64,000 bases of DNA, taken from the sequence record MZ234030.1. One strand, written 5' to 3'. The notes under the pieces were generated by a model. That model searched no databases and was not told the DNA's origin. It saw nothing but the letters and a program-made list of their open reading frames with translations. Made by a program: the position numbers and the translations under genes. Shown here in pieces: positions 2,430 to 64,000 of the stretch (position 1 is the stretch's first letter; every line of letters begins with the position of its first letter). Origin of the DNA: Escherichia phage vB_EcoM-CHD16UKE1.

Positions 2430-2786
2430 ATGTATAGTTCTGAATTTTCATATTTAAAAATGGAAAAAATTTCATACGATTTTATAGATGAAAAGGTTTA
2501 TTACAGTTTCCATGAACCACGTTTTAATAGTGAGGTTGGGTTTATTGTAGTAAAAGACAATTTTATTTTAAAAATATATTCAGCATTAAAGGATTTTCAT
2601 TACGAAAATATTAACCTAAAATTTAATAAAGAAAACGTTCGTAATTGTGCAGTAACAATTACAGGAAATAAAGGCACATGTGTTATGCTATCTGATGAAA
2701 TTAATGATTTGCTAAATGATGCCGAAAAGGTTGCTATTCCATCTATTGATGACCAAATTTTTAATGCTTTTATGAATAGAGGTTAA
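2430..2786 (+). CDS. Hypothetical protein (61.2 position)
   Basis: 118-aa ORF, tightly packed after sp. Confidence 0.45.
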   Translation: MYSSEFSYLKMEKISYDFIDEKVYYSFHEPRFNSEVGFIVVKDNFILKIYSALKDFHYENINLKFNKENVRNCAVTITGNKGTCVMLSDEINDLLNDAEKVAIPSIDDQIFNAFMNRG

Positions 2787-9066: not shown

Positions 9067-9690
9067 ATGATTATTAATCTTGCAGATGTTGAACAGTTAT
9101 CTATAAAAGCTGAAAGCGTTGATTTTCAATATGATATGTATAAAAAGGTCTGTGAAAAATTTACTGACTTTGAACAGTCAGTTCTTTGGCAGTGTATGGA
9201 AGCCAAAAAGAATGAAGCTCTTCATCGGCAGTTGAATAAAATCGTTAAAAAGCATTTAACTAAATCGCCTTATCAGCTATATCGTGGTATATCAAAATCG
9301 ACAAAAGAACTCATTAAAGATTTACAAGTCGGAGAAGTGTTTTCAACGAACAGAGTAGATTCATTTACTACTAGTTTGCACACAGCATGTGGTTTTTCTT
9401 ATGTTGAGTATTTCACTGAAATAATATTTCGCTTAAAAACTGATAAAGCTTTTAATTATTCTGACCATATCAGCGATATTATACTTTCTTCTCCTAATAC
9501 TGAATTTAAGTATACATATGAAGATACTGATGGATTAGATTCAGAACGTACTGATAACTTAATGATGATTGTACGTGAACAAGAATGGATGATTCCAATT
9601 GGAAAGTATAAAATAACTTCTATTTCAAAAGAAAAATTACACGATTCATTTGGAACATTTAAAGTTTATGATATTGAGGTAGTTGAATGA
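9067..9690 (+). CDS. modB: ADP-ribosyltransferase ModB-like
   Basis: 207 aa; ART triad candidates R (LYRG), S-T (STNRVDS), E-x-E (EQEWMIP); tandem with paralogue. Confidence 0.6.
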   Translation: MIINLADVEQLSIKAESVDFQYDMYKKVCEKFTDFEQSVLWQCMEAKKNEALHRQLNKIVKKHLTKSPYQLYRGISKSTKELIKDLQVGEVFSTNRVDSFTTSLHTACGFSYVEYFTEIIFRLKTDKAFNYSDHISDIILSSPNTEFKYTYEDTDGLDSERTDNLMMIVREQEWMIPIGKYKITSISKEKLHDSFGTFKVYDIEVVE

Positions 9691-10289
9691 AATACTCAAT
9701 AATGCAACTAAAAGATTTTAAAATAAAATCAATGGATGCATCGGTGCGTGCTTCTATTCGTGAAGAATTACTTTCTGAAGGGTTTAATTTATCTGAAATT
9801 GAACTTTTAATTCATTGTATTACTAATAAACCAGATGACCATACTTGGTTAAATGAAATAATCAAATCTCGTTTGGAACCAAACGATAAACCTCTTTGGA
9901 GAGGTGTTCCAGCTGAGACTAAGCAAGTATTAAATCAAGGAATTGATATTATTACATTTGATAAAGTCGTATCAGCTTCATATGATAAAAATATAGCTCT
10001 ACATTTTGCTTCCGGTTTAGAGTATAACACACAAGTTATTTTTGAATTCAAAGCTCCTATGGTATTCAATTTCCAGGAGTATGCTATAAAAGCTCTACGC
10101 TGTAAAGAATACAATCCAAACTTTAAGTTTCCGGATAGTCATCGTTATCGTAATATGGAATTAGTTTCAGATGAACAAGAAGTAATGATACCAGCTGGAA
10201 GTGTATTTAGAATTGCAGATAGATATGAGTATAAAAAGTGTTCAACATACACTATCTATACTCTTGATTTTGAAGGATTTAATCTATAA
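9687..10289 (+). CDS. modA: ADP-ribosyltransferase ModA-like
   Basis: 200 aa; R (LWRG), EQEVMIP; ATGA overlap with upstream paralogue. Confidence 0.6.
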   Translation: MKYSIMQLKDFKIKSMDASVRASIREELLSEGFNLSEIELLIHCITNKPDDHTWLNEIIKSRLEPNDKPLWRGVPAETKQVLNQGIDIITFDKVVSASYDKNIALHFASGLEYNTQVIFEFKAPMVFNFQEYAIKALRCKEYNPNFKFPDSHRYRNMELVSDEQEVMIPAGSVFRIADRYEYKKCSTYTIYTLDFEGFNL

Positions 10290-61541: not shown

Positions 61542-61546
61542 GTTGA

Positions 61547-61571
61547 GGACTCCTTCGGGAGTCCTTTTTTA
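61547..61571 (+). terminator. Rho-independent terminator
   Basis: GGACTCC-TTCG-GGAGTCC then TTTTTT; same hairpin as after soc. Confidence 0.8.
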
Positions 61572-61594: not shown

Positions 61595-61624
61595 GTTTAC
61601 AGTATGGTTCCTTTGTGATAGTAT
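61595..61624 (+). promoter_or_regulatory. T4-type early promoter
   Basis: GTTTAC then TAGTAT. Confidence 0.5.
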
Positions 61625-61651: not shown

Positions 61652-61984
61652 ATGAAAACGATTAATCTGAACGCTGCAGTTAAAACTAAATGCTTCAATG
61701 GTAAATATGATGAAACTATGTGGTTCTTAATGGCAGTTGAAGGTGATATTATTGAAGTAGAAACAACAGAAGGTATGGGAACAGATTTCACCTTTACAAT
61801 TCAAGTTCATAATTTCTTTACTGGTTGGATTTATGAATTGAATACAGTAATCGTTGGAAAAATTGAACAAAATGAATTAGGTGAATGGTATTATGTTACA
61901 GCTCGCCAACGTGCCGAACGCTTAATTGAGAAGATGAAAAAAGTTGGTAAACTTGACATGCAGCATTGGAAAGTAGTAAAATAA
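61652..61984 (+). CDS. Hypothetical protein
   Basis: 110-aa ORF with RBS AAGGAG. Confidence 0.45.
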   Translation: MKTINLNAAVKTKCFNGKYDETMWFLMAVEGDIIEVETTEGMGTDFTFTIQVHNFFTGWIYELNTVIVGKIEQNELGEWYYVTARQRAERLIEKMKKVGKLDMQHWKVVK

Positions 61985-61986
61985 TT

Positions 61987-62015
61987 GTTTACTTTGGTAC
62001 AGGATATGATATTAT
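61987..62015 (+). promoter_or_regulatory. T4-type early promoter
   Basis: GTTTAC then TATTAT. Confidence 0.5.
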
Positions 62016-62951: not shown

Positions 62952-63154
62952 ATATAATTAATAAGATTTTTGGAATTCAGTACATTAAGGTCACATATAA
63001 AGTAACAGATAAAAATCCATATACTGATGAACATGAAGAACCACAAGTTAAGTCTATTATATTAGAAAAGGACCCTAACTGGCCAGTTGAATTTCGTCTT
63101 CCTTGCTATGGTCATTGGGCTGATGTTGAAATTATAAGCATTGAAAATGTCTGA
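62948..63154 (+). CDS. Hypothetical protein
   Basis: 68-aa ORF. Confidence 0.4.
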   Translation: MNIINKIFGIQYIKVTYKVTDKNPYTDEHEEPQVKSIILEKDPNWPVEFRLPCYGHWADVEIISIENV

Positions 63155-63605
63155 GTTAGAGATTAGAAGTAATTTTAGGTGGCCATCATGTGCATTAAGT
63201 AATTTCGCCCATTGGCCTTTCGTTATGGATGGTATTCAATTTGGAGGTCTTGAAGGATTCCTCCAAGGATGCAAGGTGAAAAACGTTGAACAACAACGTC
63301 GTATATTTGGGTTATCCGGGCTTGCCGCCCAACAAGCTGGAAGGTCTTATGCTAGAGCTCAGGACCGTGGGACCCTCTTCTGGATTGGAGTTCCGTTTTC
63401 AAGATACTCCCCGGCGTGGAAAGAATTATACACAAATGCATATTTTGAAGCAGCGATCCAAAACAAGGGCTTTCGTGATGCATTACAAGCCTCGAAAGGA
63501 AAAGTTTTGAAGCACAGCATGGCTAGTGGTCTAACAAAAGATGATACAATACTAACCGAAGCTGAATTTATTGATGTGTTAAACTTATTAAGAGACTCTT
63601 TATGA
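63141..63605 (+). CDS. NADAR/YbiA-like (DUF1768) protein, candidate ADP-ribose-processing enzyme
   Basis: 154 aa; LSNFAHWPF...DGIQFGGLEGF motif typical of the NADAR fold. Confidence 0.55.
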   Translation: MKMSELEIRSNFRWPSCALSNFAHWPFVMDGIQFGGLEGFLQGCKVKNVEQQRRIFGLSGLAAQQAGRSYARAQDRGTLFWIGVPFSRYSPAWKELYTNAYFEAAIQNKGFRDALQASKGKVLKHSMASGLTKDDTILTEAEFIDVLNLLRDSL

Positions 63606-64000
63606 AGCCTACTATTTTAACTGATATTGATGGAGTATGTTTAAGCTGGCAATCAGGTCTTCCTTATTTTGCTCAGAAATATAATCTTCCGTTGGAACAT
63701 ATTTTAAAAATGATCCAAGATGAGAAATTTATTTCTCCAGGTAAACTCTTTAATTGTGATGAAGAACTTGGCGTCAAGTTAATTGAAAAATACAATCGTT
63801 CAGATTTTATTCGTTACTTGTCTCCATATAAAGATGCTCTGTGCGTAATTAACAAATTAAAAGAAGATTATAATTTTGTAGCTGTTACAGCATTGGGTGA
63901 TTCTATTGACGCTCTGCTGAATCGTCAATTTAATTTGAATGCTCTTTTTCCTGGTGCCTTCTCAGAAGTACTGATGTGTGGTCATGATTCTTCAAAAGAA
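63602..64000 (+). CDS. HAD-superfamily hydrolase-like protein (5' part, truncated by window end)
   Basis: N-terminal LTDIDGV (DxDG) motif; ORF runs off the window. Confidence 0.5.
   Translation, partial: MKPTILTDIDGVCLSWQSGLPYFAQKYNLPLEHILKMIQDEKFISPGKLFNCDEELGVKLIEKYNRSDFIRYLSPYKDALCVINKLKEDYNFVAVTALGDSIDALLNRQFNLNALFPGAFSEVLMCGHDSSKE

Follow-up and report, generated by a model that had tools for sequence, protein, structure and literature searches.

The open reading frame (ORF) near the end of the 64,000-nt stretch of phage DNA analyzed here (the window) is orthologous to T4 gene 30.3, adfN. With a probability of roughly 0.9, we read it as encoding a 152-aa, single-domain NADAR enzyme of the YbiA fold that hydrolyses guanine-linked ADP-ribose and counters the DarTG1 defence system. 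This analysis showed its orthology, its family and fold, and that the catalytic residues and the C-terminus are intact; we infer that the allele of this phage behaves like the T4 allele against DarTG1. The finding is already known and the ORF brings no new biology: papers published between 2023 and 2026 described the enzyme, its substrate, and its role in counter-defence. Orthology does predict that this phage should resist DarTG1-type defence, and the finding touches the question of why T4-type AdfN needs a T-even infection.

The bacterial toxin DarT1 modifies phage DNA by linking ADP-ribose to guanine N2 and blocks replication. In the proposed mechanism AdfN, as the product of a prereplicative gene string, would hydrolyse the N-glycosidic bond between guanine N2 and ribose, restoring a replicable template. 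It would act as an "orphan antitoxin" that serves the phage in place of the host antitoxin DarG1, without binding the toxin.

Identification of adfN and its start codon

The ORF listing of the window contains a plus-strand ORF at 63141..63605 that encodes 154 aa from a TTG codon. Its coding potential is confirmed far beyond chance because the product matches Pfam family PF08010 (Phage_30_3) over the full model (E=1.4e-69, 232.7 bits against a cutoff of 36, residues 11–150 on model positions 1–138 of 138), is 98% identical to T4 gp30.3 at equal length (149 of 152 residues), and has homologues in 1510 phage records out of 50,697. These homologues belong mainly to T4-like phages of Escherichia, Klebsiella, Shigella, Aeromonas, Acinetobacter, and Vibrio. 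An alternative ATG at 63147, six bases 3' of the TTG, gives a 152-aa protein and is most likely the true start (Table 1). We chose it because 152 aa is the length of T4 gp30.3 (NP_049816, 459 nt), with which the protein is collinear, and because the catalytic residues then fall at E36 and K43, the numbering of the AdfN paper (PMC11825919). The T4 gene is annotated at 128307..128765 of NC_000866 (459 nt). An earlier reading of this DNA from its sequence only had proposed a 154-aa gene; the ORF is real, but the gene is better started at the ATG.

Table 1. Features of adfN, its neighbours, and the ModA and ModB genes in the window.
Feature	Coordinates	Strand	Description and evidence
ModB	9067-9690		96% to T4; ORF listing and pairwise BLASTP
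ModA	9687-10289		99% to T4; ORF listing and pairwise BLASTP
Gene 30.4, 68 aa	62948..63154	+	Upstream of adfN; T4 annotation; phrog_2042, unknown function
adfN (gene 30.3) CDS	63147..63605	+	Predicted phage-type NADAR DNA ADP-ribosylglycohydrolase; ORF of 152 aa plus TGA stop; 149/152 to T4 gp30.3; PF08010; NADAR fold
S18-N19-F20 codons	63198..63206	+	N-terminal side of NADAR active site; 90/90 conserved; aligned to YbiA SNF
E36-G37-F38-L39-Q40-G41-C42-K43 codons	63252..63275	+	Catalytic Glu36, GAA, 63252-63254; Lys43, AAG, 63273-63275
His123 codon, CAC	63513..63515	+	Phage-NADAR-specific residue; 90/90 conserved; directly after last strand
C-terminal alpha-helix, residues 138-151	63558..63599	+	Model, high pLDDT; ORF uninterrupted to residue 152; helix missing in frameshifted RB69 allele
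Gene 30.2, cut by window end	63602..64000	+	Downstream of adfN; T4 annotation; phrog_420, unknown function

Genome setting and integrity of the allele

The window is part of a T4-like (Tequatrovirus) genome. The DNA around adfN is 98–99.5% identical to many Tequatrovirus genomes, with Escherichia phage vB_EcoM-PM123 as the top match (99.5%). Gene content and order correspond to T4 read along its minus strand, with gene 41 at the start of the window and the 30.9–30.2 string at its end. T4 and the window share the order 30.9-30.8-30.7-...-30.4-30.3-30.2; adfN is flanked by ORFs matching T4 30.4 and 30.2, and the domains PF06919 (30.7) and PF06019 (30.8) lie upstream.

The protein differs from T4 gp30.3 by Q22H, L80I, and I125M. 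At the nucleotide level there are 11 differences from the T4 gene, and that 8 of these are synonymous is consistent with purifying selection on adfN. We considered that the allele of this phage might be non-functional or weakened and the gene a decaying remnant, as natural defective alleles do exist, including a frameshifted one in RB69 (PMC11825919), and truncated or fused gp30.3 fragments occur in databases (for example P0004–P0007 and P0013–P0018). The excess of synonymous over non-synonymous differences (8 against 3, the latter all at variable positions) speaks against decay, as do a full-length ORF of 152 aa with its C-terminal helix and every invariant residue intact. The same protein also occurs with 100% identity in another isolate, Shigella phage SfPhi01, and 70 phage records carry a homologue at least 99% identical to it. 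Taken with this evidence, decay is extremely improbable, and an intact orthologue of adfN is the reading we retain.

Among the database fragments, five short proteins (P0014–P0016, P0048, and P0095) join a piece of PF08010 to PF06919 (gp30.7), PF11097, PF06019 (gp30.8), or PF26911. These combinations within the 30.x region may stem from frameshifts, from fusions made in gene calling, or from real rearrangements among T4-like phages. T4 annotation also places an overlapping ORF, 30.3', within adfN in another frame (63283-63510, plus strand). Here its ATG start is ACG, through a T to C change at 63284 that is synonymous in 30.3. The overlap holds four differences from T4, three of which alter the 30.3' protein and only one gp30.3; these numbers are small, and they suggest that 30.3' is not a conserved gene.

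Family membership and predicted structure

Searched alone, the adfN product matched only PF08010 in Pfam at E≤1, with PF08719 (NADAR) absent; phmmer against PDB sequences (E≤10) gave no meaningful match, and NCBIfam returned no NADAR match and holds no model for gp30.3. We gathered 104 homologues and aligned the query with the 89 full-length ones (alignment A1, 90 sequences). PF08719 is matched individually by 13 of these 90 proteins (best E=1.5e-07), and one homologue (P0083) carries both PF08010 and PF08719 assignments. A profile of the A1 family run against PDB sequences recovered E. coli YbiA (2b3w; E=0.0059 over 56 aligned columns), a marginal sequence-level link, and nothing else up to an E limit of 10. 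The hmmsearch alignment to YbiA pairs the SNF motif and the E-x3-Q-x2-K segment. A NADAR match in profile searches had been set beforehand as a test of the assignment, and the outcome was divided: the match is absent for the single sequence but present with the family profile.

An AlphaFold2 model of the adfN product built on A1 has high confidence (mean pLDDT 93.2, pTM 0.89). It displays the core helices with small flanking sheets of the YbiA fold, and its last beta-strand comprises residues 120–122. In a Foldseek search of the PDB, the three best matches were all NADAR structures: YbiA 2b3w ranked first (E=1.8e-4, TMq 0.67), followed by the Phytophthora PnNADAR with ADP-ribose (8bau) and a Geobacter lovleyi NADAR (8bat). 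The E-values of the latter two are weak (0.04 and 0.1), yet their probabilities are 0.97–1.0, and the fourth match falls to E=2.9. Searching the viral models of BFVD returned gp30.3-family proteins first and then dozens of entries labelled NADAR from phages and giant viruses. Membership of the adfN product in the NADAR superfamily is therefore supported at the level of family and of predicted fold, and the NADAR/YbiA-like fold proposed from the sequence was borne out by the 13 homologues, the profile link to YbiA, and the top three fold matches. PHROG 652 (gp30.3) is nonetheless listed under "unknown function", and T4 RefSeq and nearly all of the matching phage records listed still file the protein as "hypothetical protein"; the present assignment gives this ORF a functional name.

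Active site and conservation

Thirteen residues are invariant across the 90 A1 sequences (P13, S18, N19, F20, F25, E36, G37, F38, Q40, Q50, H123, L136, and T137), and K43 is kept in 88. The conserved family motif is S18-N19-F20 ... E36-G37-F38-x-Q40-x-x-K43 ... H123. The SNF-x3-PF and G-x2-F-x3-E segments pointed out in the sequence-only reading do occur in the ORF, and the string quoted for them (LSNFAHWPFVMDGIQFGGLEGF) is literally present. As a family hallmark, the second segment holds in part: E36 is found in 90/90 sequences and G29 in 85/90, but F32 is neither invariant nor near-invariant. The three substitutions relative to T4 all fall in variable A1 columns, and position 125 is Met in 40 sequences and Ile in 41. 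The published catalytic residues and the C-terminal helix are intact.

The spacing of seven between Glu and Lys (E36/K43) equals that in PnNADAR (E43/K50) and in E. coli C7 NADAR (E88/K95). In the structure of PnNADAR with ADP-ribose, E43 and E125 hold the distal ribose and K50 holds the adenine and pyrophosphate; in C7 NADAR, E88, K95, and D171 are required for activity. By analogy, the distal ribose in AdfN would lie between Glu36 and His123, with the pyrophosphate held by Lys43. The residue at the last strand is reported to be Glu in YbiA-type, Asp in DarT-associated (DarG1-type), and His in phage NADARs (PMC11125620, PMC11543638), and H123 of the adfN product carries this phage signature.

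The identity of this residue also bears on whether AdfN could be a metabolic N-glycosidase of the YbiA type that, during infection, breaks down reactive intermediates of the riboflavin pathway or similar small molecules, with removal of ADP-ribose from DNA as a secondary activity. Such a role would fit the fact that YbiA is both the top fold match and the top sequence match in the PDB, and YbiA is reported to act on riboflavin intermediates (PMC11543638). However, the last-strand Glu that defines YbiA is replaced by His in 90/90 sequences, the published phylogeny puts phage NADARs closest to DarG1-type antitoxins, and the genetic phenotype is anti-DarTG1 (PMC11825919). We regard a metabolic role as exceedingly unlikely and favor hydrolysis of guanine-linked ADP-ribose on DNA.

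Published function of the T4 orthologue

Schuller et al., 2023 (PMC11543638) listed T4 gp30.3 within the NADAR superfamily, as its phage branch. The purified protein hydrolyses ADP-ribosylated guanine (G-ADPr) but not its thymine counterpart (T-ADPr) (Toxins 2024, PMC11125620), and a later study found that it does not hydrolyse C-ADPr either (Toxins 2026, PMC12945103). Johannesman et al. (Nat Commun 2025, PMC11825919) mapped T-even phages' resistance against DarTG1 to gene 30.3, giving it the new name adfN, for anti-DarT factor NADAR. In that work, deletion of adfN from T4 or T2 abolished plaquing on DarTG1 cells and ectopic expression rescued RB69, so that the gene is both necessary and sufficient for T-even resistance. 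Purified AdfN-T4 strips ADP-ribose from DarT1-modified DNA; the E36A and K43A variants are impaired, and E36A is inactive in vitro. No two-hybrid interaction between AdfN and DarT1 was seen, and loss of the C-terminal helix in the frameshifted RB69 allele cripples activity (PMC11825919).

These reports agree with the earlier proposal of an ADP-ribose–DNA hydrolase that counters DarT toxins, which now stands published for a T4 protein 98% identical to the one studied here (PMC11825919, PMC11125620, PMC12945103). The experiments proposed along with it, rescue from DarTG and removal of ADP-ribose in vitro, had already been published for T4 and T2 with the predicted result. Calling the ORF a "candidate anti-defence enzyme" was thus right as to anti-defence, but the function is published for T4/T2 and is no longer that of a candidate.

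A simple "free-standing hydrolase" is an incomplete picture of AdfN because AdfN-T4 fails to rescue uninfected E. coli from DarT1 (PMC11125620) and barely helps T5 or Bas25. It works fully only during T-even infection, independent of DNA hypermodification, and the authors suggest that an additional phage protein is involved.

Neighbouring genes and regulatory signals

The stop of 30.4 and the start of adfN share 8 nt (63147-63154, ATGTCTGA), and the ATG of 30.2 overlaps the TGA stop of adfN as ATGA (63602-63605). Because of these overlaps, and since no obvious Shine-Dalgarno sequence precedes the adfN ATG, the genes 30.4-30.3-30.2 probably form a tightly packed, translationally coupled string. 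Full-length T4 gp30.2 has no Pfam match at E≤0.01 and no PDB sequence match. Its N-terminus, MKPTILTDIDGVCLSW, includes a DIDGV motif that we take to resemble motif I of HAD phosphatases (DxDG).

Either coupled neighbour, gp30.2 or gp30.4, could in principle be the missing cofactor that AdfN-T4 needs in T-even infection, though we consider this decidedly unlikely. The homologues of gp30.3 at 38–39% identity (L004–L008) are without a 30.2 neighbour, and the linkage of 30.3 and 30.2 is therefore T4-type synteny rather than a conserved module. When gp30.2 was examined as a conserved partner of adfN, the downstream 254-aa protein in L004 proved unrelated (E=1.2), and the neighbours in L007 and L008 also differ; gp30.2 was rejected in this role. 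Overall, the neighbourhood evidence argues against a family-wide obligatory partner of AdfN.

In the 308-kb-class metagenomic phage contig L004 (and likewise in L005 and L006), the gene for a 39%-identical gp30.3 homologue adjoins a Thg1-like gene, and a gene for a NUDIX hydrolase is found some 2.6 kb away (L004 8115-8879 and 9308-10294). It is speculative that the NUDIX enzyme could consume released ADP-ribose.

Further upstream in the window, a strong terminator-like hairpin of 9 bp follows the 30.9-like ORF (61545-61566, plus strand; GAGGACTCC...GGAGTCCTT, then a T run). Sigma-70-like promoter matches on the plus strand lie after it and before 30.8 and 30.7, at 61596-61624, 61953-61982 (11 of 12 matches), and 61988-62015. 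The promoter scan found 13 sigma-70-like sites overall compared with 14.6 ± 4.4 in shuffles, showing no excess. Placement of adfN in the "early region" would be by analogy with T4, resting on synteny and strand.

ADP-ribosyltransferases and the adfA locus

The sequence-only reading had held the gene to be notable alongside ModB and ModA in the same window. These genes lie 53 kb away, and neither our tests nor the literature covered yielded a functional link of AdfN to the phage's own transferases; this association was not upheld. One explanation that would create such a link is that AdfN erases the phage's own ADP-ribosylation by Alt, ModA, or ModB (arginine-ADP-ribose on RNA polymerase, S1, and EF-Tu, or RNAylation by ModB). 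We found no published test of AdfN activity on arginine-ADP-ribose. Both ModB and ModA are present in the genome, and T4 as well as a 58%-identical relative (L009) carry alt roughly 3 kb downstream of 30.3, in the order 30.3-30.2-30.1-30-alt.1-alt; the corresponding position falls outside the window. Against a role in erasing these marks stand the 53 kb that separate ModA/ModB from adfN, the loss of synteny with alt in the homologues at 38–39% identity (L004–L008), and the reported phenotype of ΔadfN, which is specific to DarTG1 (PMC11825919). The enzyme is moreover active on guanine-ADPr and inactive on the thymine (PMC11125620) and cytosine (PMC12945103) forms. Erasure of the phage's own marks is very unlikely on these grounds, and counteraction of DarTG1 remains the preferred function of AdfN.

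The other anti-DarT factor, adfA, is T4 gene 61.2 (PMC9391042). At its position here we observed a 118-aa ORF (2430-2786, plus strand) that matches the last 103 residues of T4 AdfA (208 aa) at 34% identity. Where T4 has the His of its "NHIA" segment, this ORF aligns a Cys; that His is presumably the counterpart of the critical His164 site in RB69 AdfA. Judged by this alignment, the ORF is a short, divergent adfA-like allele. With only a short and divergent gene at the adfA position, this phage may depend on AdfN alone as an effective anti-DarT1 factor.

Comparison with known systems

The closest known system is AdfN-T4 (PF08010), with which the protein shares 98% identity, length, start, genomic neighbours, E36/K43/H123, and the C-terminal helix. 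The differences are the conservative changes Q22H, L80I, and I125M at variable positions. Compared with phage T4 as a whole, the gene at the adfA (61.2) position is much shorter and divergent.

NADARs associated with DarG1/DarT1 (the BC4488 family; 8bat and E. coli C7 NADAR) have the same fold and the same pair of Glu and Lys at +7, and phage NADARs are reported to be most closely related to them. The shared chemistry would be hydrolysis of guanine-N2 ADP-ribose, known on the AdfN side from the T4 protein. In contrast to the DarG1 type, the adfN product carries His123 rather than Asp, its gene does not lie beside darT, and the neighbours 30.4 and 30.2 are without an ART domain. Identity in the structural alignment is ~16%, and AdfN-T4 cannot replace DarG1 in uninfected cells.

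E. coli YbiA (2b3w) is the top fold match in the PDB and the sole PDB sequence match of the family profile, and it too hydrolyses G-ADPr in vitro (PMC11125620). Where YbiA has Glu at the last strand, the gp30.3 family has the invariant His123, and the adfN product does not carry the YbiA-type residue. C-ADPr is a further substrate of YbiA but not of the T4 NADAR (PMC12945103). It is, furthermore, a chromosomal protein encoded in a LexA-controlled operon, with a role toward riboflavin intermediates.

Finally, AdfN-Bas32 and AdfN-Bas60, NADARs from T5-like and Vequintavirinae phages, likewise act against DarTG1 and target guanine-linked ADP-ribose specifically. They were independently acquired, lie outside the gp30.3 cluster, and, unlike AdfN-T4, work without T-even infection.
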